NCBI GenBank assembly: GCA_049651785.1
Contig: JBASCT010000022.1
Span: 44 to 64,043 of the forward strand
Source of the DNA: Minisyncoccia bacterium
GTDB lineage: Bacteria > Patescibacteriota > Minisyncoccia > Phycocordibacterales > Zambryskibacteraceae
DNA: 64,000 nucleotides
Direction: 5' to 3'
Shown: positions 41,499-63,039 of the stretch, one piece after another
Layout: every line of letters starts with the position of its first letter
How positions within the stretch are numbered: position 1 is the first letter of the stretch
The notes under the pieces: model-generated
What the model saw: the letters and a program-made list of their open reading frames with translations, nothing else
Told to the model about the DNA's origin: nothing
Databases searched by the model: none
Position numbers and translations under genes: made by a program

Positions 41499-41499
41499 G

Positions 41500-42078: not shown

Positions 42079-42103
42079 GTTATTTATAGTGAGCTTGTCG
42101 AAT

Positions 42104-42574
42104 CTATTTTAGCACAAAGAGGGCAACGCCCGCCGCAACCGAGACATTGAGCGAAAGGGAGTTGCCCGGCGTGCCTATTTCTACAATCTCATCGGAAAGT
42201 TCGAGCGTCTTTTTCTCGACACCCGCAACCTCGCTACCTACTATTAGGGCGAATTTTTCTTTGGCTTTGAAATTTTTAAGCTGTCCCGCCCGCAGGTCTT
42301 GTTCAAGAGCAATGATTTGGAAGCCGTCTTGTTTCAATTTTTTTACCGCCGATTCTGCCGTCTTCTCGTATTCCCAAGGCACTCTTTTTTCCGCGCCCAA
42401 GGACACCTTGGCGAAATCTTGGCGCGCCCTCCGGAAGCGGTCGAGGGGCGCGGGGGTTGTACCGACCAGAACTATTTTTGAGACTCCAAAACGGTCGGCG
42501 GTGCGGAAGATTGAGGCCGTATTCTCAACACTCCTGATATTTTCAAGCACCAAGATGGAAGTTCGGTTTGTCAT
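42104..42574 (-). CDS. SpoU/TrmH-family RNA 2'-O-methyltransferase
   Basis: SPOUT motifs LENIRSVENTASIFRTADRFG, LEQDL, LIVGSEVAGV and EIGTPGNSLSLNVSVAAGVALF. Start reassigned to internal Met so that the stop/start couples with mutM. Confidence 0.8.
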   Translation of the reverse strand: MTNRTSILVLENIRSVENTASIFRTADRFGVSKIVLVGTTPAPLDRFRRARQDFAKVSLGAEKRVPWEYEKTAESAVKKLKQDGFQIIALEQDLRAGQLKNFKAKEKFALIVGSEVAGVEKKTLELSDEIVEIGTPGNSLSLNVSVAAGVALFVLK

Positions 42575-43473
42575 TTGCCTGCCCGCCGACGAGGCGGGTA
42601 GAGTTTCTGGTGCTTGTTGCAGAAGTGAGTACTTCTCGAACCAATTACGAGGCGCTCCATTTTTCCTCGGCAGCCGGGTTTCAGACATCTTTCTCCCGTT
42701 CGCTGATAGGCCCTGTGATGGTTCTGAAACTTGCCCTTGCCACCCTCAATATTTCGGTAATCGGAGGTTGAGTCTCCACCAAGATCTAGGCCCTTGCGCA
42801 AAAGCTCTTTCATCGCCCGAAAAGAGAGCTTCAAATTTGTTTCCGGAATTTTATCCGGGTGGGAGAGAGGGTGAATTCCCGCCCGCCAGAGAATTTCGTC
42901 GGAATAAATATTACCGATGCCCGAGATTAAGCTCTGGTCGAGAAGAACCTGCTTAATTTTCCCCCTTGGGCGCAAGAGGAGACGCCTCCTGAAATCCGGG
43001 AAGCCAAAATTTTTATCCAAGGGTTCGGGTCCGAGGTTTTGGAGGTGCGGGGAACGGTGGAGCGCCTCTGTTCTGACAACAGTCACTTTGGCGAATTTTC
43101 GCAGGTCGGAGAATAACAGATCTTTGCTGTTGTCGAGGGCGAATTTCAGACGGACAAACTTGGTTTCCGGCCTGTCGTAGACGAAGTGCCCTGTCATTTT
43201 CATATGGACGATGATAGTTTCTCCGCCTGCTTGCCCCGAGCCCGGTTGAGGGGAGAGATGGATTAAGATGTTTTTTGCCCTTCTTTCTGCTCTAAGAATC
43301 TTTTTGCCCACGATGCGTCTCCTAAAATTTAGAAAAAACTTTGGATCCTTAATATTATCTTTGCCTTTGTGATACTCACTTCGGTAGTCAGTAGTAACGC
43401 TAAGGATTTTCTTTCCTTTTACCGTTCTGTTTAGTCCTTTGACCGTAGTTTCTACTTCCGGCAGCTCAGGCAT
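42571..43473 (-). CDS. mutM: Formamidopyrimidine-DNA glycosylase
   Basis: MPELPEVETT N-terminus (catalytic P2/E3) and C-terminal zinc finger CLKPGCRGKMERLVIGSRSTHFC. Confidence 0.9.
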   Translation of the reverse strand: MPELPEVETTVKGLNRTVKGKKILSVTTDYRSEYHKGKDNIKDPKFFLNFRRRIVGKKILRAERRAKNILIHLSPQPGSGQAGGETIIVHMKMTGHFVYDRPETKFVRLKFALDNSKDLLFSDLRKFAKVTVVRTEALHRSPHLQNLGPEPLDKNFGFPDFRRRLLLRPRGKIKQVLLDQSLISGIGNIYSDEILWRAGIHPLSHPDKIPETNLKLSFRAMKELLRKGLDLGGDSTSDYRNIEGGKGKFQNHHRAYQRTGERCLKPGCRGKMERLVIGSRSTHFCNKHQKLYPPRRRAGK

Positions 43474-43479
43474 ATACTT

Positions 43480-44082
43480 TTAACTCTTCTTAACTCCGAT
43501 GTAGGATTTGATCTTGCGATCACCGCTTACAGCGAAAGCAATGGATCTCATATTGCCGTCGTCAAGCTCCCAGCGCATTTTTTTCAACCCTTTTCTATTG
43601 ACCGGACTCGGACCTCTTTCGATCACTATGGGCAAGGAATATCGGTCTTTTTTTATAATCTTTTTGAGATTAATAATAATTGGAACGACGCGCCTGGCTC
43701 TTTTGTTAAGAAGCCCGCTACCTGACTCAAGAGCTTTTCTAACCATTTTTCCAGTATGCGCCAGTGAATTATCTGTCCAAGAAACAGGGAGTCCGCCAGC
43801 TCTTTTCCAAACCCCCACTTCTTTGGTTAAAAGCTCACCTACATACCAGTCAACTTTTTGATAAGCAACAAGCCTCTTTTTCCAGCTGCCGATAATTTTA
43901 TCCAGTTTTTTCTCCGGCAGTTTTCTTAGCGCCTTGTAGGCTCGGGCTCTTGCCAGCAAATATTTTTTAACTGGGGGAATTTTTTTATCATTTTTTTTAG
44001 CAACACCGTATTTCCGGAGAAATTCTGTTAAAAGAAAAGTTCTCTTAACCTCAATACCGCCAACTCTTCTCATTAACTTCAT
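43480..44082 (-). CDS. Lys-rich hypothetical protein between ruvA and mutM
   Basis: 200 aa, coupled to ruvA (overlapping stop/start); no confident family. Confidence 0.45.
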   Translation of the reverse strand: MKLMRRVGGIEVKRTFLLTEFLRKYGVAKKNDKKIPPVKKYLLARARAYKALRKLPEKKLDKIIGSWKKRLVAYQKVDWYVGELLTKEVGVWKRAGGLPVSWTDNSLAHTGKMVRKALESGSGLLNKRARRVVPIIINLKKIIKKDRYSLPIVIERGPSPVNRKGLKKMRWELDDGNMRSIAFAVSGDRKIKSYIGVKKS

Positions 44083-44654
44083 GATCTTGCAGAAAGCAGT
44101 TTGAGGGCGGCGCGGACTCGCTCAGAGACACCCTTAATATCCTTAGAAACTTTTTTCAACGCCTCGCGAGCATCACGTTCGCTGTAGCCGAGAGAGACCA
44201 GAGCCTCGAGGGCGTCTCCTTCCGAGCGGGTGTCGAGGCCGCCGTCCTCTTTGGTTATCTTCAGCTTGTCTTTGAGCTCCAAGACAATTTTCTCCGCGTT
44301 CTTTTTACCGATACCGGAGACGCGCGTCAGGTATGAAGTGTCGGAGCTCGCCACGGCCTGCCGAAGCGTTTGCGGACTCGCAACGTTGAGAATGTTTAGC
44401 GCCGTCTTCGGCCCAATGCCCGAAATCGTTATCAGAAGCTCAAAAGTATCCAAGGTTTCTTTGTCGATAAACCCGTACAAATCAAGAGCGTTTTCCCGCA
44501 CGGCCAAATGCGTCCAGAGAAAAATTGGCGCCCCCACCGTTGCCTCAAGCGCGGTCTCAGCCGTGACGGCCGTGCGGTAGCCGACCCCCGAGACCTCCAC
44601 TACCAGCGAGCCGAGACCTCTGCTTTTTACCGTACCGTTAAGCGAGCCTATCAT
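44079..44654 (-). CDS. ruvA: Holliday junction DNA helicase RuvA
   Basis: 191 aa; MIGSLNG N-terminus, HhH motifs (LITISGIGPKTALNIL; LTRVSGIGKKNAEKIVLEL). Confidence 0.9.
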   Translation of the reverse strand: MIGSLNGTVKSRGLGSLVVEVSGVGYRTAVTAETALEATVGAPIFLWTHLAVRENALDLYGFIDKETLDTFELLITISGIGPKTALNILNVASPQTLRQAVASSDTSYLTRVSGIGKKNAEKIVLELKDKLKITKEDGGLDTRSEGDALEALVSLGYSERDAREALKKVSKDIKGVSERVRAALKLLSARS

Positions 44655-44697
44655 CGTCTTGTCATTATAAATGAAAGTCTGCTAAGATGCTCTCACT

Positions 44698-44958
44698 ATG
44701 GCAATTACGCAAAGCGCGAAGAAAGCCCTGCGAGTCTCGAAAAGGAGGCGAGTCTTTAATCTGCGCCGTAAAAGCGAAGTCGAGCGCGCCGTAAAATCTT
44801 TCAAAAAACTCCTAGCTTCTGGCGATAAAAAGGGGACTCTGGAAGCCATGCGCCAGGTTCAGAGTGCTCTGGATAAGGCGGTCAAAGGCAAAACCTTGAA
44901 GAAAAACAACGCCGCGCGCAAAAAGTCTCGCCTTTCAAAGCTCTTGAAGAAGCTATAA
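44698..44958 (+). CDS. rpsT: 30S ribosomal protein S20
   Basis: 86 aa; MAITQSAKKALRVSKRRRVFNLRRKSEVERAVK is S20-like. Confidence 0.85.
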   Translation: MAITQSAKKALRVSKRRRVFNLRRKSEVERAVKSFKKLLASGDKKGTLEAMRQVQSALDKAVKGKTLKKNNAARKKSRLSKLLKKL

Positions 44959-44992
44959 ACTGGAACTGTTCATCTGCGTCTACCAGAGACAA

Positions 44993-45066
44993 GCTCTCAT
45001 CGTTCAATGGATAGGACATAACTTTGCGGAAGTTAAAATGTAGGTTCGATTCCTACTGAGAGCACC
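44993..45066 (+). tRNA. tRNA with anticodon GCG (Arg, decoding CGC/CGU)
   Basis: Manual cloverleaf GCTCTCA-TC-GTTC-AATGGATA-GGAC-A-TAACT-TTGCGGA-AGTTA-AAAT-GTAGG-TTCGATT-CCTAC-TGAGAGC-A-CC; G37 is consistent with a CGN decoder. Confidence 0.65.
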
Positions 45067-45537
45067 TTAGAATCCGAAATACTCGAGAATTTTTTCTACA
45101 AACGGGAGAGCGTGGAACTCTTCTTTTAGAACCGAAGAAAGATTCTCGTGGAGTTCGTCGGCGTCGATTTCATCATTTAAGGGTACGATGATAAGGGGCA
45201 TGAGCATTTTTTGCGACTTGAGAATTATCTTTTTATGAGGATGCTCGACATCTATCCAAAAAGATTCGAGGGTGGAATAAGGATAAAATACCTTGCCGCG
45301 CACAAGACCCTTCTCGTCGACCGCCACATGGACATTGTTCGGCGGACGCTTGGCAAAGAGGGAGAGGGCGAAGGCGCCGACCAGAATCAGAATACCGAGG
45401 ATAATATTTTTGAAAATTATTGCGGCAACCGCGAGAGCAACAGCGACAATTCCGACCGCCCAGAACCAGTCTGAACTCCTAACTTTATGTTCGTATTCGT
45501 GGGCGTCCCACTCCATTCTGAAAGAGGGTCGTGGCAT
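45067..45537 (-). CDS. Membrane hypothetical protein
   Basis: 156 aa; two TM helices after HEYEHK; no family recognised. Confidence 0.45.
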   Translation of the reverse strand: MPRPSFRMEWDAHEYEHKVRSSDWFWAVGIVAVALAVAAIIFKNIILGILILVGAFALSLFAKRPPNNVHVAVDEKGLVRGKVFYPYSTLESFWIDVEHPHKKIILKSQKMLMPLIIVPLNDEIDADELHENLSSVLKEEFHALPFVEKILEYFGF

Positions 45538-45580
45538 AGATGGAAAAATTATATCATAATCAATATAACAAGATTACAGC

Positions 45581-46336
45581 ATGACCGAAGTACTTCTTTA
45601 TTCCGTCCTCGTGATGCTTGCCTCCCTTGTCGGCGTTTTCGCTGTCTGGCGCAACGTCGGCCGCCTTATCGAGCGCAATCTTAGCCTTTTGGTAAGTCTC
45701 TCGGCGGGCGTCTTTGTTGTCATAACTTACAACCTGATGAAGGAAACCATGGAGCACTCGAGCGGAGTGACAGAGGGGCTCGCCTGGATTCTCGGCGGAG
45801 CTTTCTTCTTCTGGCTGCTTTTTAAACTGGCACCCCTCTTCCACCACCACCACGATGCCAGCAGAGAAACGACTCCGCACTCTCGGATAGATGCGCGCCG
45901 GGTTATGGCCGGAGATGCCCTGCACAATTTCAGCGACGGCCTTCTGCTTGCCGCCTCTTTTGGGGTCAGCTCTGCCTTCGGTGTCTTAACCGCCTTGAGT
46001 ATTTTTGTTCACGAACTGGTGCAGGAGATGTCGGAGTTTTTTGTTTTGAAGCAGGCGGGCTACCAGACCAAGAAAGCGCTTATTTCCAATTTCGCCATAT
46101 CCTCGACAATTTTACTCGGCTCGCTTGTTGGGTTTTTCCTTATAGATAATTTTGAAATGTTCGAGGTACCGCTTCTGGGGCTGACAGCTGGCGCCTTCCT
46201 TGTTGTCGTCCTCGATGACCTTATTCCGCATTCAATCCGCGCCTCTAGATTAACTCAATTCTATGCCAGACACCTCGCTTGGTTTGTCATCGGGCTCGTT
46301 TTAATGTTTGTTGTTAGCTCTTTTGTTACACCCTAA
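45581..46336 (+). CDS. ZIP-family divalent metal transporter (ZupT-like)
   Basis: 251 aa; His-rich loop LFHHHHDA, conserved HNFSDGL and HELVQE motifs. Confidence 0.8.
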   Translation: MTEVLLYSVLVMLASLVGVFAVWRNVGRLIERNLSLLVSLSAGVFVVITYNLMKETMEHSSGVTEGLAWILGGAFFFWLLFKLAPLFHHHHDASRETTPHSRIDARRVMAGDALHNFSDGLLLAASFGVSSAFGVLTALSIFVHELVQEMSEFFVLKQAGYQTKKALISNFAISSTILLGSLVGFFLIDNFEMFEVPLLGLTAGAFLVVVLDDLIPHSIRASRLTQFYARHLAWFVIGLVLMFVVSSFVTP

Positions 46337-46337
46337 C

Positions 46338-46422
46338 TGGCGGAGGGTAGAGGACTCGAACCTCTAAGGGCTTTCACCCGCCGGTTTTCAAGACCGGTGC
46401 CATACCGTTAGGCGAACCCTCC
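46338..46422 (-). tRNA. tRNA-Ser (anticodon UGA), CCA encoded
   Basis: Manual fold GGAGGGT...CCGGT-CTTGAAA-ACCGG, long variable arm, T-arm AGAGG-TTCGAGT-CCTCT, ACCCTCC-G-CCA. Confidence 0.8.
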
Positions 46423-46434
46423 AATTAAGTTACT

Positions 46435-46671
46435 TTACTCGGTTTTTTCAATTACTTCCACCTTATATTTTCGTGCCACAAGAGAGTAGTAAATAATTTC
46501 GAGAACGCCGAAAGTGTTGATTATGAAAATAGCAACGAACCAATATTTATGTCTCAGACCTGCCGCGGTCCATAAAGCGAACCCCTTCCAGGCAAGAGAC
46601 CAGATTACCAGTAGAGCAATTGCCGCAAGCTCCGTCGGGCTGAACTGGGACAAAATTTCGAGCAAATTCAT
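46435..46671 (-). CDS. Small two-TM membrane protein (hypothetical)
   Basis: 78 aa; two hydrophobic helices. Confidence 0.4.
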   Translation of the reverse strand: MNLLEILSQFSPTELAAIALLVIWSLAWKGFALWTAAGLRHKYWFVAIFIINTFGVLEIIYYSLVARKYKVEVIEKTE

Positions 46672-46703
46672 GTTAATTCCCCAATTGTACTATAATTTCC
46701 CTA

Positions 46704-47078
46704 ATGAGACTTATGGCGATAGATTATGGCTCCAAGCGCGTCGGTATCGCCTCAACCGATGAGACCGGGAGGTTTGCTCTGCCGCGCGCCGTCTGGCCAA
46801 ACGACGACAAGCTTCTTGATAAGATTCTTGAGTTTAAGGAGAAAGAGGGGGTAGAGAAGATCGTCATCGGCGAATCTAAAAATTTTAAAGGTGGGCCCAA
46901 CCCCATTCAGAAAGAAATAGAAGAATTTAAAAAAACTCTTGAGGCGCTGGGAATCTCCGCGGTCTACCATCCCGAAATAATGACAACAGTTGAAGCAAGA
47001 CGGATTCAGGGTAATACGGAGTTCACGGACGCCTCGGCCGCCGCGCTTATCCTCAGGAATTTCCTTGATGCTGTATAA
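46704..47078 (+). CDS. ruvX: YqgF/RuvX RNase H-fold nuclease (putative pre-16S rRNA nuclease)
   Basis: 124 aa; MRLMAIDYGSKRVGIA with conserved D/E residues. Confidence 0.85.
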   Translation: MRLMAIDYGSKRVGIASTDETGRFALPRAVWPNDDKLLDKILEFKEKEGVEKIVIGESKNFKGGPNPIQKEIEEFKKTLEALGISAVYHPEIMTTVEARRIQGNTEFTDASAAALILRNFLDAV

Positions 47079-47087
47079 TAAATCCGT

Positions 47088-48086
47088 ATGGCGGTACTTT
47101 TGAGACGCAGAAGTTTAATGGACTTTTTCCCCGTGCCCGAGTTCATGCTTCTCTCGATGACGGGGATTGTTATAACCGACGACGACACTCGTTTTGTCGA
47201 GCTGAAGCGAGGCCTTTTCGGCGACGGCTTCGAGCTGGTGCACGCAAGCAAGGCCGCCAACCCCAAGGGTGCTGTTGAGTCGGGGCTTATTGTTAGTCCG
47301 CAAAATCTTGCCCCAGTGGTCAAAAAGCTCTCTGAGCACTACGGGGTACGATACGCCCGAGCCGTCCTACCGGAAGAGCGGGCCTACCTTTTCACCACCA
47401 CGATAGACTGGGTCCCGCGCGAAGGTTTGAGAGATGCCGTGGCTTTCATTATCGAAGAAAATGCGCCGGTGTCTCTCGCTGAATCCGTATTTGATTTCGA
47501 AGTAATAAATTCCGACCGAGGAGCGGGGGAGATAAAGCTTGCCGTCTCCGTTGTGCCGAAAGAGATTACAAAAAGTTACGAAGGCCTTCTGGAATCCGTG
47601 AACATCACCCCAATCTCTTTTGAGCTCGAATCGCAAGCTGTTGCCCGCGCGGTTATTCACCGCGAGGATAAGCGCCCGCAACTTATAATAAATTTGTCTC
47701 TCAAGAAAACAGGTTTTTATGTCGTCGAGGACGGCGTGGCCCAGTTCAGCACCACACCGGTATTTGGCATCGGTGCCGACGGTGCTTACGCCAATCTGGC
47801 AGACCTTCGAGCCGAGATGAGGAAGGTTATTACTTTCTGGAATGTTCGTACCGACAAAGAAGGCCGGCCGGGGAAGAAAATAGAACAAATCGTTCTCTGC
47901 GGCCAAGGAACAAATGACCCGGCCTTTGTCGACAAGCTCATGGAAGGAAGTGAAGTGGATCACCAGCTTGCTGACGTCTGGCTCAACCTCTCTTCTTCAC
48001 GCGACGCGACCCCGCCGATCCCTTTTGAGGAATCGCTTGGCTACACTCCGGCTATCGGTCTGGTCCTGCCGCGTCGAAACGAATAA
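47088..48086 (+). CDS. pilM: PilM-like type IV pilus assembly protein (actin-like fold candidate)
   Basis: 332 aa; cytoplasmic protein directly upstream of two bitopic PilN/PilO-like genes. Assigned mainly by context. Confidence 0.55.
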   Translation: MAVLLRRRSLMDFFPVPEFMLLSMTGIVITDDDTRFVELKRGLFGDGFELVHASKAANPKGAVESGLIVSPQNLAPVVKKLSEHYGVRYARAVLPEERAYLFTTTIDWVPREGLRDAVAFIIEENAPVSLAESVFDFEVINSDRGAGEIKLAVSVVPKEITKSYEGLLESVNITPISFELESQAVARAVIHREDKRPQLIINLSLKKTGFYVVEDGVAQFSTTPVFGIGADGAYANLADLRAEMRKVITFWNVRTDKEGRPGKKIEQIVLCGQGTNDPAFVDKLMEGSEVDHQLADVWLNLSSSRDATPPIPFEESLGYTPAIGLVLPRRNE

Positions 48087-48088
48087 AT

Positions 48089-48619
48089 ATGCTTAAACTC
48101 TTAACAGACGAGGGCAGAGAAAAAGTTTCCGAGGAGTACAAAGTACGCCGAGTGGTCGTTATTATTTTGGCGCTTATCGTCATTACGATTATAACTATTA
48201 TCGGACTTTTGCCGTCATATGTTCTCTCAGACAGCCGCGAAGAAGAAGCACTCGCTCGTCTGCGACTCACCGAATCTGGCGGCCAGAAAGAGGGACAAGA
48301 GCTTCGCACCTGGCTTGCCGAGACCAATAAAAGACTCTCAACCATCGCGCCGAACCTTGACACCGACAAGCCCTCCAATTTCATCGCGCGCGCCATAGCC
48401 CTAAAGCCCTCGGGTATAAAAATCACCAGTTTTTCCTGGACCAAGGCAAAGGACAAAGTCACCCTTTCTCTTAGTGGTACGGCCCTGGACCGACAGACTT
48501 TGGTACGCTTCGAAAACGAGATAGAGGCGTCGGGTCTTTTCTCTGACATTACTCTGCCGATTTCTGATCTCGCCAAGGATCGCAATATCGGTTTCCAGAT
48601 AAAATTCTCGCCGATATGA
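48089..48619 (+). CDS. PilN-like bitopic pilus assembly protein
   Basis: 176 aa; N-terminal TM helix then periplasmic domain. Confidence 0.5.
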   Translation: MLKLLTDEGREKVSEEYKVRRVVVIILALIVITIITIIGLLPSYVLSDSREEEALARLRLTESGGQKEGQELRTWLAETNKRLSTIAPNLDTDKPSNFIARAIALKPSGIKITSFSWTKAKDKVTLSLSGTALDRQTLVRFENEIEASGLFSDITLPISDLAKDRNIGFQIKFSPI

Positions 48620-49137
48620 CAAACAAAAGCTCAAAACCGATTCTCATTCTCCTCCTAATTATTTTTGCCGCCCTCATTGCGGTATTGGTCTTCGGCATTC
48701 TTGACATCAGGACAAAGAACACGGAAATCTCAAGATTGGTCAACGAGGCGGATCAGGCGGTCGAGAATGAAAGACTCATCCAGTCCATAAAGGAACTCCA
48801 GAACGAAGCGGCCGGGAATCTTGAAGCCTTTGGTCAGGCGGTCTTTATGGACGACAAGCTTGTCCCTCTTATCGAGATGATAGAGGGGCTAGGCAGAAGT
48901 TTGGGCCTCGAGACGAGGATTGCTTCCGTTTCAGAGATAGAAGATAAAAAGTCGGCCGAGCCCAAAATTATTAAAATTACAATTGAGGCAACCGATGGTT
49001 CTTGGAGTTCGGCCTTCTCTTTTTTGAGAGCGATAGAAAACTTGCCGCATAGAGTTATGGTAGAAGACGCCAGTCTTTCTAAAGAAGGGGATGACTGGCG
49101 CCTGCGCCTGACCATCTCTCTCTACTCATTCAAATAA
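48616..49137 (+). CDS. PilO-like bitopic pilus assembly protein
   Basis: 173 aa; TM helix + coiled coil + C-terminal domain; overlapping stop/start. Confidence 0.45.
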   Translation: MTNKSSKPILILLLIIFAALIAVLVFGILDIRTKNTEISRLVNEADQAVENERLIQSIKELQNEAAGNLEAFGQAVFMDDKLVPLIEMIEGLGRSLGLETRIASVSEIEDKKSAEPKIIKITIEATDGSWSSAFSFLRAIENLPHRVMVEDASLSKEGDDWRLRLTISLYSFK

Positions 49138-49138
49138 C

Positions 49139-49462
49139 ATGGAAGAAAAGAAAAACATATTTAACATAAGCGGCAAACTCCACATCCATTTTCTCCATTG
49201 GGGGAGGAGTCCGGAGAGGGATTGGAAGATAATATTTGTCTTTGCCACCATTTTCGTTTTCTGCTCCATCGCCACGAGCGCTTTTATCTTCGTCAAAATA
49301 GACAGAGGCGAAATATTCCTTGCTGAAAAAGTTAACGAAGAATCTGGAGAAACTCTCGACTTTAAAAAACTCGAAGAAACGGCTTCGTACTATAAAAACA
49401 AAGAACTCGAATTGGAAAAAATTATAAGGTCAAAACCGCAGTACGTTGACCCGTCGCTCTGA
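49139..49462 (+). CDS. Small membrane protein (PilP-position gene)
   Basis: 107 aa; one TM helix. Confidence 0.4.
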   Translation: MEEKKNIFNISGKLHIHFLHWGRSPERDWKIIFVFATIFVFCSIATSAFIFVKIDRGEIFLAEKVNEESGETLDFKKLEETASYYKNKELELEKIIRSKPQYVDPSL

Positions 49463-49484
49463 TAAAGCTACGATTGAGGCACCT

Positions 49485-49556
49485 GTCCCCGTAGCTTAAT
49501 GGATAAAGTAGAGCTCTTCTAAGGCTTTGATGCAGGTTCGATTCCTGCCGGGGACA
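49485..49556 (+). tRNA. tRNA-Arg (anticodon UCU)
   Basis: Manual fold GTCCCCG-TA-GCTT-AATGGATA-AAGT-A-GAGCT-CTTCTAA-GGCTT-TGAT-GCAGG-TTCGATT-CCTGC-CGGGGAC-A. Confidence 0.75.
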
Positions 49557-49622
49557 CAAATTGACTTCTCTCTTCCAGAGTGCTATTTTCGCCTCTAGCC
49601 TAACTATTTTGGGGAGAGACAA

Positions 49623-50261
49623 ATGGAATCTCCGAATGTGTTACCGTTCTTTGACGATCCCGGAAAATTTTTCGGCAATTGTGATATCGGCGATAAGGAG
49701 GCGCCACGCCACATAGTCGAGGCCCAAGAGCCCCGGTACCAGTACCACGCGATTCTGACAAAGGATGTTGGGCAAGTTTCTGGAGAAGACTTCCTTCGAT
49801 ACACGAGACGCCTTGTTGCAATCTGCTACCGCGTTTACCGAAGGGCGGAATGGGAACTGACCGCCGATTCAAGGGGTCCGATTAGTTTCTATATTTCCTC
49901 GAGTGGGAAGTATCAGAAACCGCCGTACTTTACGAATGACGTGAGCCAGCTCAACGAGAAGGTTTTCTTGGCGATGTTCAGGATGTCGTACTTCATGAAG
50001 CTTCGTGTCAATCAGAGGCCTATCTCTGGTCGGCAACCAAGCTCTTACGCCAAGATTTTCTGGCATTGTTACAAACCCGACATGCTCTTCGTGGCGGCCA
50101 GGCGCGACCATCGTGATGACTATCGAGGTACGGCCGCCGCCCTTGAGGGTCTGCTTTCTCGGAAATTTCTCTATGTTCCGAAAATGGCACCAACCGATGG
50201 CTTCTCCGTGGATCTCGGCATGGACATCTACAACAGGGAAGAAATGGAATTGCCTTCCTGA
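49623..50261 (+). CDS. Hypothetical protein immediately downstream of tRNA-Arg
   Basis: 212 aa; no recognisable family. Confidence 0.45.
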   Translation: MESPNVLPFFDDPGKFFGNCDIGDKEAPRHIVEAQEPRYQYHAILTKDVGQVSGEDFLRYTRRLVAICYRVYRRAEWELTADSRGPISFYISSSGKYQKPPYFTNDVSQLNEKVFLAMFRMSYFMKLRVNQRPISGRQPSSYAKIFWHCYKPDMLFVAARRDHRDDYRGTAAALEGLLSRKFLYVPKMAPTDGFSVDLGMDIYNREEMELPS

Positions 50262-50302
50262 TTTTCGACACAGGGCGTCCAACGATAGGGCGCTCTTTCT
50301 TT

Positions 50303-51004
50303 TTACAAACTTATCTCTCGAACGGATTGATTGCGATGAATTAGTTCGTCATTTCTGACGGAGAGGAAAAATTCGTACTGGTTTCTTGGGTTCCTGCCGT
50401 ACCAACGCAGGAATTCGCTCTCAACCGGTTTTTTCTTCAGCTCCTCGCCTCGGGTTTCGAGAAATTTTGAGTATTGTTCAAATGCGTGTTGTTCGAAAAG
50501 ATAATTAAGCTCGAGAGACGCCCTGGGGCTGAAAAGGTACAAAAGGTAAGAGGTCCAGAAATAGAAGAAAGCGAAAAGCATCGGCACAAAAGTGTGTCTA
50601 AGGAAGCCGGCCCTCTTCTCTTTTTTTGCCAATTGCGTTATGACGATTACATGCATGGTCTCGTTGTCTTGCGCTAGGCGGGCGTAGCGCGTGACATTTG
50701 AGAGTCGGAGGGCGCGTTTCTCATCCGAATAAAACATTGTAAGAAGTGTATAGGCGACCGAGGACCAAGAGTGGTAGGGAACACGGGCGATAACTTCCAC
50801 GGCACGAAATTTCAGATAAGACGGCTTGAAGCCGTAGAAAAGATTGCCGCAATTAACGAGAAAACCCCCGAGAATCTGGGGCAGGAATCCGGGGCGGTAG
50901 CTGTCGAAAGGTTTTTTATAAGCTTCGAGTTGTTCCGGGTTATTGAGTTCTAGGTTGAGCGCTTCTAACCCTGGTTTATCTTTTGGTGTATCCATTAGAA
51001 ACAT
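50303..51004 (-). CDS. Alternative oxidase / plastid terminal oxidase family di-iron carboxylate protein
   Basis: All four AOX iron-binding helices are present: EVIARVP (LETVAAVPG-like), NETMHV (NERMHL-like), EQHAFEQY (EEEAIHSY-like), RNDELIHRN (RADEAHHRDVNH-like). The track's longer GTG start at 51106 lies inside tRNA-Leu and is rejected. Confidence 0.75.
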   Translation of the reverse strand: MFLMDTPKDKPGLEALNLELNNPEQLEAYKKPFDSYRPGFLPQILGGFLVNCGNLFYGFKPSYLKFRAVEVIARVPYHSWSSVAYTLLTMFYSDEKRALRLSNVTRYARLAQDNETMHVIVITQLAKKEKRAGFLRHTFVPMLFAFFYFWTSYLLYLFSPRASLELNYLFEQHAFEQYSKFLETRGEELKKKPVESEFLRWYGRNPRNQYEFFLSVRNDELIHRNQSVREISL

Positions 51005-51025
51005 TATAACTGACAAAGTTACTAC

Positions 51026-51112
51026 TGGTGCCGAGGAGGAGATTTGAACTCCTACGAGGGTTCCCTCACTGCGTTCTGAACACAGCGTGTCTACCAATTT
51101 CACCACCTCGGC
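51026..51112 (-). tRNA. tRNA-Leu (anticodon CAG)
   Basis: Manual fold GCCGAGG-TG-GTG-AAATTGGTAGA-CAC-G-CTGTG-TTCAGAA-CGCAG-long variable arm-AGGAG-TTCAAAT-CTCCT-CCTCGGC-A-CCA. Confidence 0.8.
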
Positions 51113-51120
51113 TTTGCTAG

Positions 51121-51194
51121 TGCGCGCTGAGGGATTTGAACCCCCGGCCTACTGTGTGTAAAACAGTCGCTCTAACCAACTGAGCTAAGCGCGC
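51121..51194 (-). tRNA. tRNA-Val (anticodon UAC)
   Basis: Manual fold GCGCGCT-TA-GCTC-AGTTGGTTA-GAGC-G-ACTGT-TTTACAC-ACAGT-AGGCC-GGGGG-TTCAAAT-CCCTC-AGCGCGC-A. Confidence 0.8.
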
Positions 51195-51275
51195 GTGCTT
51201 CAGTTATACACTATTATTCTTAAAGCAACAATATTAGACTGGAGTAACTCATACTAGGTATGTTATACTTTACTT

Positions 51276-51944
51276 ATGAAAGTTAAAGAAAGAGAACATG
51301 CTCGTAAGTTGCGGAAAAAAGGCAAGTCAATGAACCAAATTATTGAAGAAACTGGATATTCTAAGGCTAGTGTAAGTTTTTGGACTCGTGACATTAAGCT
51401 AACTCCTTATCAAAAAAATAAGATATCGTTGCGAGGAAGGAGTATTGAATCAATTGAGAGAAGAAGAGAGAGTCGCCTTGCAAATATAGCAAATAAAAGG
51501 CGGGAGATAATAGACTTGGCAAAAGGAGATTTTACGAGTCTAACCATAAGGGAACTAAAATTAGTAGGAGCTATGATTTACTGGGGGGAAGGTAGAAAGG
51601 CCGGAAACTGGACTGTTAGTTTGGCAAATAGCGATCCGTTAATTATTAAGGTTATGATGAGATTTTTTCGGGAAGTGTGCAAGGTGCCGGAGGAAAAATT
51701 TCGTGGACATATACACACTTTTGAAAATGCTACGATATCTAAGACTGAAAGATACTGGTCCGAAATATCTGGTATACAACGAAAACAGTTTTATAAAACA
51801 TATACAAAGCCAAGCAAAGGAGGTTTGCAAAAAAGACAAACATTACCCTACGGGACCCTAGACATATATGTCAATGACACAAAATTATTTCTTACAATTA
51901 AGGGGTGGATTGAGAAAATTGCTGAATTAGCCATAAATTCATGA
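51276..51944 (+). CDS. HTH + LAGLIDADG-like protein, paralogue of the 40668..41498 gene
   Basis: N-terminus LRKKGKSMNQIIEETGYSKASVSFW aligns with LRKSGHTLTEIVKITGRSKTSVYSHI of the tRNA-Lys-adjacent gene. Motif LVGAMIYWGEG corresponds to LVAHLIFDGTI. Confidence 0.5.
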   Translation: MKVKEREHARKLRKKGKSMNQIIEETGYSKASVSFWTRDIKLTPYQKNKISLRGRSIESIERRRESRLANIANKRREIIDLAKGDFTSLTIRELKLVGAMIYWGEGRKAGNWTVSLANSDPLIIKVMMRFFREVCKVPEEKFRGHIHTFENATISKTERYWSEISGIQRKQFYKTYTKPSKGGLQKRQTLPYGTLDIYVNDTKLFLTIKGWIEKIAELAINS

Positions 51945-52699
51945 TTGACCTATCTAAAAATATTCTTTACGAAGACTCCGACTTGCTGGTGATAAACAAG
52001 CCAGCTGGACTCGTGGTGCACCCAGACGGTAGGACCAAAGAGCCGAGTGTCTCGGAGTGGTTTGAGAAAAAATTTCCCGAAGCGCGCAGCGTGGGCGAGC
52101 CCTTAGAGCTTGAAACAGGAGAAATTTTAGAACGCACGGGGGTGGTACATCGGATAGACCGAGAAACTTCTGGGGCCCTAATTCTTGCTAAAACAAAAAA
52201 AGGACACGCGGCGCTCAAAAAACAATTCCAAAATAGAGAGGTTTCAAAAATTTACCACCTTTTTGTCGCGGGCGACCTCAAGCGTGACCAAGGCACGATT
52301 GATTTGGCGATAGGCAGAAGTATTAATGACTTCCGCAAACGCTCGGCAGAACGCATTACTCGAGGCGAGAAAAGAGAAGCCCTGACGCACTTCAGAGTGC
52401 TTAGGAAACCATCCGATAAGACCTCCACTTTCGTGGAAGCAAGACCAAAAACAGGTCGAACCCATCAGATTAGAGTTCATTTCAAAGCTATTGGACACCC
52501 GGTTGTTGCCGATAAACTTTACGCGCCGAAAGGGAAATCGATTCTTGGATTCAAGAGACTAGCACTCCACGCTCGTGCCGTAACTTTCAAAAATCTCTCC
52601 GGTCAAGAAGTTGCCGTCGAAGCGCCGTACCCAGAAGATTTCGAACAAGCACTTTCTGGTCTAAAAGAAAACGCCCCGCATCACTTGGGGGCGTCTTGA
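51941..52699 (+). CDS. RluA-family pseudouridine synthase
   Basis: 252 aa; LVINKPAGLVVHP and catalytic HRIDRETSGALILAKT motif. Confidence 0.85.
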   Translation: MIDLSKNILYEDSDLLVINKPAGLVVHPDGRTKEPSVSEWFEKKFPEARSVGEPLELETGEILERTGVVHRIDRETSGALILAKTKKGHAALKKQFQNREVSKIYHLFVAGDLKRDQGTIDLAIGRSINDFRKRSAERITRGEKREALTHFRVLRKPSDKTSTFVEARPKTGRTHQIRVHFKAIGHPVVADKLYAPKGKSILGFKRLALHARAVTFKNLSGQEVAVEAPYPEDFEQALSGLKENAPHHLGAS

Positions 52700-53379
52700 G
52701 GAGCGAGTTCAAGCTCGCACTGAGTATGATTGTCGGAATGGAGACATCCGGCGAAGTGCTCAGAGGCGATGCTGTAGGCGGCTCTAGCCGCTTTACGAGG
52801 GGGTCGCTTGTGACCGTCTCGTGCGCGTTCGCCAGTTAGAACAATGTTATTTTCCGTCTTCGTTACCCGGAGCTCACCACTCGGGTGCAAATAAAAGCCG
52901 AAGAGGTACGGGGACCAGGCGCGTCTTTTGAACCTGACTGTGACTTTTGACTTATCTTTCGGATCAACGGTCAGCACGTGCTCATGAAGAGACTTGATGC
53001 TATCCAGGTCCTTTTCAACCTCAAGAAAACCAAGAACTTCTGCGAGCATCTTTTGGTACAGTTCGTACGGCACATCTACCGCCACCCGTAGGCCGGACGG
53101 CTCGATGCGCCCATGACGGCGTCTTTCTATGTCTTCACCGCTCTCGCTGTCCTCATTGACGAGCCAGTTGATGAAATAGTAATCGCCAAGACACTCTCCC
53201 ACGACTTCTATCATGCTCATGAGGTCGCCATAGCCAGGCAGCTTGAAGCGGCGCTCGACAAACTTCACCCCAACTGCTGGAGGCCAGTTTTCCGATTTCA
53301 CAAAGTACTCCTCTAAAACCGTTCCGCTCGCCAATATAGCAGAAACGGCTTCCGCCGAGTAATGGACACTGGCGGCCAA
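52681..53379 (-). CDS. Hypothetical protein
   Basis: 232 aa; no confident family. Confidence 0.4.
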   Translation of the reverse strand: MAASVHYSAEAVSAILASGTVLEEYFVKSENWPPAVGVKFVERRFKLPGYGDLMSMIEVVGECLGDYYFINWLVNEDSESGEDIERRRHGRIEPSGLRVAVDVPYELYQKMLAEVLGFLEVEKDLDSIKSLHEHVLTVDPKDKSKVTVRFKRRAWSPYLFGFYLHPSGELRVTKTENNIVLTGERARDGHKRPPRKAARAAYSIASEHFAGCLHSDNHTQCELELAPQDAPK

Positions 53380-53393
53380 AATGTGTTAGATTA

Positions 53394-53795
53394 TTGCCCA
53401 CTGCCGTTATGAAAATAATGAGTCCAGTCAATATCGAAGAGAGGCAAAAACTCGACATCCGAGCGGGCGACACTGTCCGTGTCTGGCAAAAAATATTGGA
53501 AAAGGGCAAGACCCGCTTGCAGGCCTTTGAGGGCCTGGTTCTTGCCACTAAACACGGCAAGGAGGCAGGGGCAACCCTAACTTTACGCCGTACTGCCTCG
53601 GGCGTTGGGGTTGAGAAAATTTTCCCGCTCTACTCTCCCGTAATCGACAAAATTGAAATCGTTAAGCGCTCAAAGGTCCGCCGAGCCAAGCTCTATCACA
53701 TCAGAGAAAAGGCGACCAAGGAGATCAGTCGCCAGATGAGAAATGTCCGCATGGCGAAAGACGAAGAGGTGGCAGCTGAGGCGGAAGCGAAGTAA
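53394..53795 (+). CDS. rplS: 50S ribosomal protein L19
   Basis: 133 aa; FRAGDTVRV...RLQAFEGLV...HGKEAGATLTLRR...GVEKIFPLYSP signature. Confidence 0.9.
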   Translation: MPTAVMKIMSPVNIEERQKLDIRAGDTVRVWQKILEKGKTRLQAFEGLVLATKHGKEAGATLTLRRTASGVGVEKIFPLYSPVIDKIEIVKRSKVRRAKLYHIREKATKEISRQMRNVRMAKDEEVAAEAEAK

Positions 53796-53827
53796 GATTG
53801 AAACACGCCCTCCTTCGCCGAGGCTTC

Positions 53828-53911
53828 GGACGGGCAATGCGCGGGTGGCGAAATTGGTAGACGCACTACCTTGAGGTGGTAGCGCTGGCAACGGCGTGGA
53901 GGTTCAAATCC
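53828..53911 (+). tRNA. tRNA-Leu (anticodon GAG)
   Basis: Manual fold GCGCGGG-TG-GCG-AAATTGGTAGA-CGC-A-CTACC-TTGAGGT-GGTAG-long variable arm-GGAGG-TTCAAAT-CCTCT-CCCGCGC-A. Confidence 0.75.
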
Positions 53912-53924
53912 TCTCCCGCGCACT

Positions 53925-54473
53925 ATGTTTTTTACCGGTAAGGGTGATAAGGGTACCACGAAGTTTTTCGGCACGGATGCCAGGCGTGTTTCGAAAAGCT
54001 CGAATGTGGCGGAAGCGCTCGGGAGTTTAGACGAGCTCAATTCTCTTCTCGGGCTTGTAAAGGTGAAATGTCTTGAGAAAAAGACCGAGGTTTATGACAA
54101 CTTGGCTGAGACGGTAGAAAACGTTCAGGAAAATATTTTTATCATCTCGGCCAATATCGCTGGGGCGAACAAAAATATCACGGAGGAGAAAGTGAAGGAA
54201 ATGGAGGAGATTATCCGCCAGTGCGAAAAGACTCTGCCGCCGATAAAAACTTTTACCGTTGCCGGCGGCACGGAGCTCTCGGCACTCTTTGATTTCGCCA
54301 GAACCCTGGCGCGCCGGGCCGAGAGGCGAGTGGTCTCAGTCAATGAAGAGCTTCCTATCGCGCCACCCGAAATTCTGAAGTATATGAATCGACTCTCAAG
54401 TCTTCTTTTTGCCCTCGCTCGACTCTCGAATCACCTTTCTGGTATAAAAGAGCGCGCTCCGCGATATACTTAA
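53925..54473 (+). CDS. ATP:cob(I)alamin adenosyltransferase, PduO type
   Basis: 182 aa; N-terminus TGKGDKGTTKFFGTDARRVSKSSNVAEALGSLDELNSLLG matches the PduO/MMAB family signature. Confidence 0.8.
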   Translation: MFFTGKGDKGTTKFFGTDARRVSKSSNVAEALGSLDELNSLLGLVKVKCLEKKTEVYDNLAETVENVQENIFIISANIAGANKNITEEKVKEMEEIIRQCEKTLPPIKTFTVAGGTELSALFDFARTLARRAERRVVSVNEELPIAPPEILKYMNRLSSLLFALARLSNHLSGIKERAPRYT

Positions 54474-54487
54474 AACGGAGAATTAAT

Positions 54488-54560
54488 GGCGGCTATAGTT
54501 TAGTGGTAGAACTCCAGCTTGTGGAGCTGGTCGCGAGAGTTCGATTCTCTCTAGCCGCCC
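54488..54560 (+). tRNA. tRNA-His (anticodon GUG) with genomically encoded G-1
   Basis: Manual fold G(-1)-GCGGCTA-TA-GTTT-AGTGGTA-GAAC-T-CCAGC-TTGTGGA-GCTGG-TCGCG-AGAGT-TCGATTC-TCTCT-AGCCGCC-C; G-1 pairs with discriminator C. Confidence 0.8.
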
Positions 54561-54570
54561 AAGATACAAA

Positions 54571-54600
54571 AATGTCTGTTCTTACGACAGGCATTTTTGT
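54571..54600 (+). terminator. Terminator hairpin AATGTCTGT-TCTTACG-ACAGGCATT + TTTTGTT after tRNA-His
   Basis: Direct reading. Confidence 0.6.
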
Positions 54601-54617
54601 TATCTTTGTCTTGTTTA

Positions 54618-54635
54618 GGAGAGAGAATCGAACTC
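54618..54635. repeat. Inverted partial copy of the tRNA-His T-arm (GGAGAGAGAATCGAACTC)
   Basis: Reverse complement GAGTTCGATTCTCTCTCC matches tRNA-His 54536-54552 at 16/17 positions. Confidence 0.6.
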
Positions 54636-54687
54636 GGGAAGGGGGTCGGGGAAACTCTAGTTTCCCCGTGGAGGAAGGCAGGGCGAT

Positions 54688-54703
54688 CTGCCTGCGCAGG
54701 CAG
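54688..54703. repeat. Perfect 16-nt GC palindrome CTGCCTGCGCAGGCAG
   Basis: Direct reading. Confidence 0.7.
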
Positions 54704-54752
54704 GAGCCCGTCGGAAAACCGAGGGTTTCCGAGGAGTGAGATAGCGGAGCGT

Positions 54753-54767
54753 CTCTCTAGCCGCCCA
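54753..54767. repeat. Direct repeat of the tRNA-His 3' end (CTCTCTAGCCGCCCA), about 190 bp downstream of the gene
   Basis: Identical 15-mer to 54547-54561. Confidence 0.7.
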
Positions 54768-54837
54768 CGTCAAACGTGGCCTTGCCCGTGCAGACGTGTC
54801 CCGTTCGACGGGACCCGTCAATCTATATATTATTTAA

Positions 54838-54860
54838 GTAGCGACGTCAGACGTCGCTAC
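54838..54860 (+). promoter_or_regulatory. Perfect 11-bp-arm hairpin GTAGCGACGTC-A-GACGTCGCTAC ending 4 nt before the GIY-YIG start codon
   Basis: Direct reading; preceded by two more palindromes (CCACGTCAAACGTGG 54768-54782; GTCCCGTTCGACGGGAC 54798-54814). Confidence 0.55.
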
Positions 54861-54863
54861 GAG

Positions 54864-55130
54864 ATGCAACACTTCTACATTTACGTATTATTAAGTCGTA
54901 GGGATAAAAAACTTTATATTGGCTATACCAATAATCTAAAAAGACGGCTGACAGAACACGCAAACGGGGAAGTGAAATCAACCAAAAACCGCAGACCACT
55001 AAGACTCATTCATTATGAATATTTTATTGATGAAAGAGATGCTAAATCGCGAGAGATATTTTTAAAAAGTGGGGCAGGACACAAGCAACTTAAAGATAAG
55101 TTAAAACAAACTTTCACTAACCTATCCTGA
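54864..55130 (+). CDS. Stand-alone GIY-YIG nuclease domain protein
   Basis: 88 aa; FYIYVLLSRRDKKLYIGYTNNLKRRLTEH...N has the GIY/YIG, Arg and Glu/Asn catalytic positions. The track's longer 54597 start runs through the hairpin array and is rejected. Confidence 0.7.
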   Translation: MQHFYIYVLLSRRDKKLYIGYTNNLKRRLTEHANGEVKSTKNRRPLRLIHYEYFIDERDAKSREIFLKSGAGHKQLKDKLKQTFTNLS

Positions 55131-55397
55131 CCGTCGAATTTTATTGATTTGACAAGATAGGTAAATAAGTAGATAACGATAGAGGTAGTTCGTTGACTGT
55201 GCTACTTCCTCCTCGGATTAGAGGGCAATATCTTTAGGGCAAATTAGCCCAAAAGGAACAAAATAATGAGCGCACAATTCGCAATCGCGGAGGTTTTACC
55301 GGGCAAATTGAACGCGCTGGTGAAAAACATCATGAGTCCGACTTGAGAAGCTGACCCAAATAAGGCTGTCCGACTTGTCAACTCAGGCGAGTGGATA

Positions 55398-55916
55398 GTG
55401 GTTTCAAAACCAGCGCGCCCGTGGCGTGATGAAGGGGGTATTCTCTACTTCTCGGTCACGAGTAATGGAACAACTGGCGAGGAGTGGGTCGAACGACTCC
55501 AGAAGAAAGGTTTCCGATTAGGAGACTACGCGAAGAGAGCACTTCTTTCACCGGGCTTTAAGCCAACTTTTGGCATCACGATCGAAGTTGCTGTTCTCCA
55601 TGGCTTAATCTTCGAGGATGACAATCGGCTCACTCAAAAGATTCGCACATTTGCAGCCGAGCGTAAGCTCGAAGCTCCGAGCGCCGAGATTGCCTGTCTA
55701 ATTCGTGAGAAGTTCACGGACAAGGAAATCAAGGAGATGGGTCTGTGGTACATCGTTGCCATGCACGAACCCTTCGGCTTTGACGGCGACATGTTCTTGC
55801 TCGATGCAAACCGTGACGATGGTGGGCGATGGCTCGGCACCTCCTATGGCTGGTCTGACGACTCATGGGAATGGGACAGCGGGTTCGCGTTCGTCGTGTC
55901 GCAAACGAGTAGCTGA
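55398..55916 (+). CDS. Hypothetical cytoplasmic protein (GC-rich, GTG start)
   Basis: 172 aa; followed by a strong terminator. Confidence 0.45.
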   Translation: MVSKPARPWRDEGGILYFSVTSNGTTGEEWVERLQKKGFRLGDYAKRALLSPGFKPTFGITIEVAVLHGLIFEDDNRLTQKIRTFAAERKLEAPSAEIACLIREKFTDKEIKEMGLWYIVAMHEPFGFDGDMFLLDANRDDGGRWLGTSYGWSDDSWEWDSGFAFVVSQTSS

Positions 55917-55930
55917 AGACAGTTCCCTTC

Positions 55931-55960
55931 GGGCCCCGCAATCGTTGCGGGGCCCTTTTC
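55931..55960 (+). terminator. Rho-independent terminator GGGCCCCGCAA-TCG-TTGCGGGGCCC + TTTTC
   Basis: Direct reading. Confidence 0.8.
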
Positions 55961-63011: not shown

Positions 63012-63039
63012 AGCCCCGTGACGCATGCGTCACGGGGCT
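63012..63039. terminator. Bidirectional terminator AGCCCCGTGACGCATGCGTCACGGGGCT between convergent rplK and thyX
   Basis: 12-bp stem; T-rich on both flanks when read from either strand. Confidence 0.75.

Follow-up and report, generated by a model that had tools for sequence, protein, structure and literature searches.

Integrative elements that target tRNA genes, and the miniature derivatives of such elements, have direct repeats derived from the 3' end of the tRNA. The Ssn proteins, in turn, are single-domain GIY-YIG nucleases of about 94 amino acids (cd10448) that cut only single-stranded DNA (ssDNA) and are encoded beside a cognate hairpin repeat (PMC11893778); ssn genes are usually flanked by their cognate repeats, and a resemblance to mobile elements was noted by the authors (Chenal et al. 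2025, PMC11893778). That paper makes no mention of tRNA (0 occurrences), transfer-messenger RNA (tmRNA) or Patescibacteria. Here we describe a tRNA-His locus in a 64-kb stretch of DNA, referred to as the window, from a metagenome-assembled genome of Minisyncoccia (Patescibacteria, or candidate phyla radiation, CPR); loci compared with it are labelled by L-numbers (L002, L161 and so on). We consider it rather probable that the locus consists of tRNA-His and two independent insertion modules in series, each from a recurrent Patescibacteria family targeting tRNA 3' tails. Module A, about 206 bp of non-coding DNA (54562-54767), opens with a bidirectional terminator and an antisense copy of the T-arm; a core of three hairpins spanning 85 nt follows, and 16 nt of the tRNA 3' end are repeated at its far side. 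Module B (54765-55130) consists of three hairpins, H1, H2 and H3, with a conserved GTYNGAC apex, followed by a gene for an 88-amino-acid GIY-YIG nuclease.

The tRNA-His(GUG) gene occupies 54489-54559 (ARAGORN; Rfam, 67.4 bits), and its G-1 is encoded, a G at 54488 standing opposite C73 at 54559 as read from the sequence. The encoded G-1 and the terminator hairpin downstream of the gene (54566-54600) are both as an earlier description of the locus, the original prediction, had placed them, whereas its repeats required adjustment. The direct repeat of the tRNA 3' end, TCTCTCTAGCCGCCCA, is real but measures 16 nt instead of 15, with copies at 54546-54561 and 54752-54767. The inverted T-arm copy is likewise real and is perfect over 16 nt (54620-54635 against 54537-54552), whereas the 18-mer originally claimed contains two non-matching bases. 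Both matches exceed chance in shuffles, in which 0.02 matches were expected for the direct repeat, with up to two mismatches allowed, and 0.14 for the inverted copy. The palindromes are all present, at 54647-54668, 54688-54703, 54712-54731, 54765-54779, 54798-54814 and 54838-54860, but they are not all perfect, that at 54712-54731 carrying a single bulged A. Perfect hairpins with a stem of at least 8 bp number 20 in the whole 64 kb, and three of these lie within 54647-54860. What had been taken for a single hairpin array falls into two unrelated sets, S1-S3 of the module A core and H1-H3 of the nuclease cassette. The tRNA gene and module A comprise the following features:

54488-54561, plus strand: intact tRNA-His(GUG) with encoded G-1 and C73, then CA (ARAGORN, Rfam)
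54562-54751, plus strand: unique part of module A (190 bp), an insertion relative to L160, L164 and L166, orthologous to the module of L161 (alignment with relatives)
54566-54600, unstranded: terminator hairpin between tRNA and module core, preceded by an A-tract and followed by a T-tract (bidirectional design; sequence)
54620-54635, minus strand: T-loop and T-stem of tRNA-His in antisense, matching at 16/16 positions (repeat search and shuffles)
54634-54737, plus strand: conserved core, with GGGGTC, S1 (54647-54668), GTGGAGGAAGGCA, S2 (54681-54684/54706-54709), S3 (54712-54731) and AG (covariance model R1)
54688-54703, unstranded: small palindrome CTGCCTGCGCAGGCAG, a secondary insertion in the S2 loop (comparison of module copies)
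54752-54767, plus strand: right-hand member of the 16-nt direct repeat, covering tRNA positions 60-73 and CA (repeat search, relatives' alignment)

The closest relatives, located via the upstream neighbour gene, a cobalamin adenosyltransferase, display the site in other states. In L160 (87% amino-acid identity), L164 and L166 it is empty, tRNA-His being followed by the next conserved gene after 25-40 nt; the uninterrupted tRNA-His context that the original prediction proposed to seek by alignment is thus at hand. In L161 (91% amino-acid identity) tRNA-His is followed by the module with a 15-nt direct repeat and then by the original downstream flank. As had been claimed, the duplicated tRNA 3' end does mark an insertion at the tRNA gene. 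In the window itself the module is present and its right repeat runs straight into a block of ~1.19 kb (54768 to ~55957) that includes the GIY-YIG gene, with homology to the relatives' HAD-gene leader restarting at ~55958. This block is not in L161, L160, L164 or L166, a presence/absence polymorphism, and the T-arm and acceptor 3' strand of tRNA-His are identical in these four relatives. The window differs from L002, L003, L004 and L009, relatives linked to tRNA-His in which the cassette comes straight after that tRNA, by 206 bp inserted between the tRNA and H1. The block junction, in which ...CCC is followed immediately by ACGTCAAACGTGG, matches that at real tRNA-His ends (L002, L013 and L038). 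The right repeat copy is the original tRNA 3' end displaced by module A, now a pseudo-3' end. The series of empty, module-only and module-plus-block sites places module A before the GIY-YIG block, which on this comparison arrived second, behind the 16-nt pseudo-3' end.

We propose the following model for the origin of this arrangement. Module A would have inserted at the T-loop/3'-end region, duplicating tRNA positions 60-73 (plus 1-2 nt), such that the left repeat copy completes a functional tRNA with its own terminator and the right copy persists as a pseudo-3' end; the 85-nt core would then cap a helix formed by sequences that match the local tRNA. Module B, a putative selfish mini-cassette made up of H1, H2, a TATA box, H3 and the 88-amino-acid GIY-YIG gene and set exactly after the discriminator, would have come after module A as part of the ~1.19-kb block, landing on the pseudo-3' end.

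Module A belongs to a family with near-invariant cores and locus-specific ends. Its core is the sole strong match to covariance model R1 in the 64 kb (93.4 bits, E 1e-22, at 54634-54737). Metagenomes scanned with the pattern AGGAAGGCAGG-N(5-35)-CCGTCGGAAA gave 77 loci, which came down to ~40 distinct modules after a recurrent human-gut gene and chance matches in open reading frames (ORFs) were dropped. The modules adjoin more than 10 tRNA types, among them His, Gly, Leu, Arg, Ser, Met, Phe, Pro, Glu and Lys, and have an overall architecture of ~150-200 bp: a tRNA of any type, a terminator, an antisense T-arm, GGGGTC, S1 and GTGGAGGAAGGCA, then S2, a variable hairpin, GT, S3, AG, a T-loop-like hexamer and a sense tRNA tail. 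In a typical module this tail comprises tRNA positions ~60-73 plus 1-8 nt of flank. Within the 85-nt core ~50 positions are invariant, and compensatory changes are seen in S1 and S2. The local tRNA of each module is matched by the direct repeats, which measure 16-18 nt in 11 modules besides those of the window and L161, and by antisense T-arm copies 10-17 nt long; in the window, the antisense copy and the right repeat form the closing helix (AGAGAGA/TCTCTCT). The terminator arrangement is equivalent in other modules, with unrelated stem sequences. A copy that follows tRNA-Leu in L003 shares 95-97% identity with the window core and is flanked by an antisense Leu T-arm and a sense Leu 3' end, and contigs of one sample carry identical cores at different tRNAs, each with its own matching ends. 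In a permuted 'type 2' module the GGGGGTCGGGG strand follows the core, which it otherwise precedes, and the helices are retained. The direct repeat can also reach into non-tRNA flank (L124, L150 and L152).

Rfam, at E values up to 10, reported nothing over the module core or H1-H3 in the window and nothing in the uninterrupted L150 module. An intron-containing or tmRNA-like gene in the module is ruled out by ARAGORN, which, with introns up to 200 nt and relaxed scores on both module strands, called normal tRNAs only. Literature searches that included the core sequence retrieved no description of module A, which may be a new kind of element altogether.

Several module copies bear marks of further change. 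Between the window (54566-54600) and L161 (700-735) the terminator keeps its A- and T-tracts and outer flanks, and its inner stem-loop sequence is wholly different, despite an identical tRNA and, palindrome insertions aside, a near-identical module core. In L152 (~40-330) a 30-nt repeat includes non-tRNA flank, and in L103 and L136 the right-hand tRNA tail mismatches the upstream tRNA; such longer or mismatched repeats suggest tandem duplication or recombination between modules at different tRNAs. The CTGCCTGCGCAGGCAG palindrome of the window is not at the equivalent position in L003, L095 or L161. It belongs to a palindrome family, CCTGCCTGCGCAGGCAGG, with five copies in the window (3326-3341, 8717-8732, 32490-32505, 33704-33719 and 54688-54703) against 0.14 expected, two of them in frame within long ORFs, where they encode ..AQAG.. 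A palindrome of this type also occurs in L161 (859-876), at a module position different from that in the window, and the modules of L097, L101, L103 and L108 are interrupted by similar palindromes. The family looks like a tiny invasive palindromic element preferring hairpin loops.

The second module was compared across 80 Patescibacteria loci (404 kb) taken from species-representative genomes, in which one architecture precedes the gene: H1, H2, an AT-rich TATA box and H3. In the window the cassette reads as follows:

54765-54779, plus strand: H1, CCAC-GTCAAAC-GTGG, first hairpin of the cassette (motif hairpin search)
54798-54814, plus strand: H2, GTCCC-GTTCGAC-GGGAC (motif hairpin search)
54822-54835, plus strand: AT-rich TATA(T/A)AT-like box between H2 and H3, candidate promoter -10 element (sequence, homologous loci)
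54838-54860, plus strand: H3, GTAGCGAC-GTCAGAC-GTCGCTAC, ending 3 nt before the ATG (hairpin search)
54864-55130, plus strand: single-domain GIY-YIG nuclease gene, 88 amino acids (Pfam, homolog alignment)

The family consensus is CCnnGTCAAACnnGG for H1, stem-GTYWGAC-stem for H2 and stem-ACGTCWGACGT-stem for H3, so that one apex motif, in both polarities, is common to all three hairpins; H1 mostly has GTCAAAC, and H2 its complement GTTTGAC or the symmetric GTCWGAC. The stems vary and the apex is kept: the fourth stem pair, which the hairpin search left unconstrained, is Watson-Crick in 94% of 193 hairpins, with all four pair types represented. Nearly all motif hairpins (206 of 213) fall within -250 to 0 of the gene start. 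That the hairpin before the nuclease gene is tied to this gene family, as had been proposed, is borne out by its conservation in nearly all of the 80 loci; its position just before the ATG is also correct, though the gap is 3 nt and not 4. Across the family H3 lies at or over the start codon, and in some homologs it falls within the first codons, giving the peptide ETSDVS. A TATAAT match of at least 5/6 stands between H2 and H3 in 27 of 52 loci. The window contains three motif hairpins only, all of them in this cassette, and H3 is unique there, which rules out REP-like genome-wide dispersal.

The cassette keeps close company with the ends of tRNA and tmRNA genes. Directly upstream there is a tRNA or tmRNA gene on the same strand in ~63 of the 72 loci with enough upstream sequence, the partners being Gly (23), His (14), tmRNA (12) and Lys (6), together with Thr, Ala, Glu, Arg, Ile and Tyr; thirteen different anticodons and tmRNA are represented. 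The centre of H1 begins 0-5 nt past the called tRNA end in 46 of 54 loci, and its first two stem bases are therefore the CC following the discriminator, a CC that cassette-free tRNAs in the same loci do not encode. In the window, the first bases of H1 are the discriminator C and the next C of the pseudo-3' end. Nearest-neighbour proteins share the tRNA isotype in 35 cases and differ in 15, and the partner switches between proteins that are 95% (Gly-CCC/Gly-GCC), 82% (tmRNA/Ala) and 81% (His/Gly) identical. For one cassette-linked tRNA-His (L004, 2810-2884) ARAGORN gives the anticodon ATG, not GTG. The two modules also meet elsewhere: in L017 a module lies between tRNA-Gly and the GIY-YIG cassette. 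GIY-YIG homologs lie within 1 kb of ~6 of 40 modules, and the covariance model finds module copies in just 2 of the 69 cassette loci searched. As a module is present in just 3 of 70 cassette loci, we read this proximity as a shared preference for tRNA clusters. Eight tRNA genes are packed into 13 kb of the window (41499-54560), of which tRNA-His is the sole one with either module.

How does the nuclease relate to the Ssn proteins? The 88-amino-acid product matches Pfam PF01541 (GIY-YIG, E 5e-16), with no other domain found by Pfam, and Y5, Y7, Y18, G20, R28, H32 and E64 are invariant in 33 homologs, so that the catalytic Tyr, Tyr, Arg, His and Glu of a GIY-YIG domain are all in place. Homologs are 60-80% identical across Patescibacteria, those at E 1e-10 or better forming 909 clusters at 50% identity; no second GIY-YIG gene was found in the 64-kb window. 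With the NCBIfam group-I-intron endonuclease model the protein reaches 22.7 bits, short of the cut-off of 56. Like the Ssn proteins, the window protein is a single domain of ~90 amino acids without a DNA-binding domain, its gene adjoins short family-specific hairpins, as expected of gene-associated hairpin repeats of 20-50 nt, and its family is homologous to a protein whose gene is flanked by Ssn-related motif (SRM) repeats (hhalign probability 98.2%, E 2.7e-14, 40% identity over 68 columns). The latter, our control, is encoded by a 97-amino-acid GIY-YIG gene of Azospirillum lipoferum 4B (L082; plasmid AZO_p3, NC_016623.1 255506-255799) between sufB and sufC, with an inverted pair of canonical NTS-like repeats, CGTCATCCCCGCGAAGGCGGGGATCCAG, on each side, all four of which match the published pattern; this locus is a textbook SRM-ssn-SRM unit within an operon. 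There are differences from the Ssn/NTS systems as well, in that the cassette hairpins are not dispersed, the three in the 64 kb all being at this locus, and the cassette has a fixed position after the tRNA/tmRNA discriminator. The Patescibacteria protein probably works like Ssn, judged on these likenesses, and is not a demonstrated member of the Ssn family. Literature searches on GIY-YIG with tRNA, tmRNA or Patescibacteria returned the Ssn paper only (PMC11893778). The cassette is Ssn-like with a specificity for tRNA/tmRNA tails, a combination of which we found no description in the literature searched.

It is an evenly balanced proposition, in our view, that the GTYNGAC-apex hairpins are the nuclease's own ssDNA recognition sites. 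Binding or nicking at the hairpins could then drive or protect the position of the cassette behind tRNA genes, and H3, at the start of transcription and translation, would also permit self-regulation. The cognacy of nuclease and hairpins, the activity on ssDNA and the mechanism of mobility are what we infer from comparison with the Ssn systems.

Other described systems share individual features with the locus. Free-standing GIY-YIG homing endonuclease genes of T4-like phages, such as SegB in the T4 tRNA gene cluster (PMC2330249), likewise lie between conserved genes and beside tRNA genes, show presence/absence polymorphism and brought extra flanking DNA with them. Seg proteins, however, are of ~200 or more amino acids with C-terminal DNA-binding modules, whereas the window protein has 88 and consists of the catalytic domain only; the locus differs further in its cellular instead of phage host, in the conserved hairpin array before the gene and in a junction exactly at the discriminator. 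IS200/IS605 and REP/RAYT elements resemble the cassette in that DNA hairpins, conserved in the loop and variable in the stem, are the presumed basis of recognition, and in insertion beside a short specific target without classic terminal inverted repeats (PMC11893778); in contrast, the cassette has no HUH/Y1 transposase, carries hairpins at one end only, involves another nuclease superfamily and has the end of a tRNA gene as its target. As in tRNA-targeting integrative elements, module A is flanked by a 15-20-nt repeat that begins in the T-loop and ends shortly beyond the tRNA 3' end, and the tRNA is left intact. It differs from such elements, however, in being ~200 bp, non-coding and devoid of an integrase or other recombinase, in having identical cores at many tRNA species with ends that match the local tRNA, and in adding an antisense T-arm copy and a conserved three-hairpin core.

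Could larger integrative elements nevertheless have shaped the locus? The original prediction read the tRNA fragments as nested debris of repeated integration and excision, and scars of integrase-mediated traffic of larger islands at tRNA-His would account for a 16-nt repeat, well above chance, that reaches from the T-loop as far as the tRNA 3' end, the stretch in which the att sites of T-loop-type integrases lie. The antisense T-arm, palindromes and direct repeat, however, are parts of one module recurring at many tRNAs, with the same architecture and near-invariant 85-nt core in ~40 copies at more than 10 tRNA types; identical cores at different tRNAs of one sample, each with its own matching ends, cannot be the product of a fixed attP, no integrase lies in or near the modules, and the closest relative, L161, has the same compact module. 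We regard the scar model as very unlikely. Ends that match at many tRNAs likewise rule out conservative site-specific integration with a fixed attP; a simple target-site duplication is ruled out by the antisense arm and the non-conserved terminator, and formation of the direct repeat by reverse transcription of a mature tRNA stopping in the T-loop is ruled out by repeats that carry genomic flank, not CCA. It is conceivable, if doubtful, that module A is not mobile DNA and represents a gene for a structured non-coding RNA, ribozyme-like or regulatory, acting on the neighbouring tRNA via the antisense T-arm. The compensatory changes in S1 and S2 beside invariant single-stranded stretches would suit such a gene, as would the terminators bracketing the module and the circularly permuted 'type 2', which keeps its helices in the manner typical of RNAs whose fold outweighs connectivity. 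Yet the core is found in either orientation beside its tRNA (L114, L154-L156), the direct repeat can include non-tRNA flank, empty and filled sites exist among close relatives, many copies have no room for a dedicated promoter on either strand, and G-U pair counts favour neither strand. An RNA function is in any case compatible with mobility, as a mobile element could carry a functional RNA.

For the cassette, the competing account is that H1-H3 are RNA or transcription signals of a vertically inherited, domesticated gene, namely a trailer-processing or termination hairpin, a promoter and a 5'-untranslated stem before a GIY-YIG protein with a housekeeping function tied to tRNA/tmRNA genes, an account that we think unlikely. 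H1 does begin exactly at the discriminator, the start of the tRNA 3' trailer; a TATAAT-like box separates H2 from H3 in many loci and H3 is always in the start-codon region; protein identity of 60-80% across distant lineages points to purifying selection, and most nearest-neighbour proteins have the same tRNA isotype. The cassette is, however, missing from the closest relatives at the same locus, and in the window it follows a non-functional 16-nt pseudo-3' end, and therefore coupling to tRNA maturation is not required. Moreover, the tRNA partner switches between proteins that are 81-95% identical, one apex motif in both polarities is unexpected for three different signals, and the H2 apex stands anywhere from 14 to 20 nt away from the -10-like box, for which reason we make no claim that this apex is a fixed -35 element.

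The reading that we prefer, of two tRNA-tail modules in series, the second of them Ssn-like, has weaknesses of its own. The cassette hairpins do not fit the published SRM pattern, HGTCWYN(0-2)YYVSBRHN(0-5)WNVSBRGN(0-2)RNCYNB, which has 0 matches in the window and 3 in the 404 kb of cassette loci, compared with 4 around the Azospirillum control gene. The conserved GTC is at the apex of the cassette hairpins but in the 5' flank of the Neisseria NTS repeat. The cassette hairpins number three and lie upstream only, as opposed to the NTS-ssnA-NTS layout, and no conserved hairpin or repeat was found 3' of the GIY-YIG stop codon in the cassette loci. The nuclease family is about as close to the uncharacterised UPF0213 proteins (PDB 1ywl/1zg2; hhalign E 3e-11 against 1ywl) as to the Ssn-type protein, from whose Azospirillum representative it differs in the C-terminal third. 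For module A, the locus-matched antisense arm and variable terminator are left unexplained by standard schemes of transposition or integration, the core can face either way with respect to tRNAs, being reversed directly 3' of the tRNAs in L114 and L154-L156, and no transposase, integrase, reverse transcriptase or other enzyme family recurs near 38 module loci. Finally, the insertion in the window carries 830 bp of unrelated DNA, which blurs the limits of the unit that moved. Apart from these points, one of the SRM matches, TGTCATGCCAGCGCAGGCTGGCATCCAG in L055 (~2481, minus strand), looks like a genuine hairpin repeat.

The DNA downstream of the nuclease gene completes the block that L161 does not have:

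55131-55957, plus strand: AT-rich spacer, broken gene resembling a target of diversity-generating retroelements (DGRs) and GC hairpin terminator (relatives' alignment, family search)
55268-55916, plus strand: broken gene resembling a DGR variable protein (family search)
55931-55955: 11-bp GC hairpin after the stop codon of the broken gene, a terminator (sequence)

The broken gene is split into a 26-amino-acid and a 172-amino-acid ORF and belongs to a Patescibacteria family of ~207-211 amino acids (665 matches). In other contigs this family adjoins bAvd and reverse-transcriptase genes, and the gene is therefore taken as one for a DGR variable protein; no reverse transcriptase, Avd or template repeat was found in the 64-kb window. 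The 172-amino-acid ORF is ruled out as a part of the cassette, being of a DGR-locus family and not in other cassette loci. Elsewhere in the window, the longest perfect stem is that of a 28-nt perfect palindrome, AGCCCCGTGACGCATGCGTCACGGGGCT, at 63012-63039.

What is the relevance of two such modules behind one tRNA gene? Tentatively, they could represent two undescribed classes of Patescibacteria mobile element at tRNA and tmRNA ends, one a self-sufficient 88-amino-acid nuclease cassette with three cognate hairpins, the other a ribozyme-like, permutation-tolerant element of ~200 bp, a possibility that we advance with more reserve than the serial-insertion model itself. The nuclease cassette would place or keep itself right after the discriminator, a 16-nt pseudo-3' end being an adequate target; the ~200-bp element would insert at the T-loop and copy the local tRNA tail in both orientations, with no known scheme matching. 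The locus-matched sense and antisense tRNA ends of module A point to an unusual insertion or copying mechanism, and both modules account for 'tRNA fragments' and spurious ORFs called by annotation pipelines behind tRNA genes of such genomes. If the hairpins are the sites of the nuclease, the cassette would be an unusually small, self-contained unit of nuclease plus site. The Ssn family of ssDNA nucleases would then extend to candidate-phyla bacteria with a new recognition motif, which is of relevance to the ssDNA tools that have been proposed, and would acquire its first link to a defined target in the genome, the tRNA/tmRNA discriminator, such that an Ssn-like role outside Neisseria would become testable.

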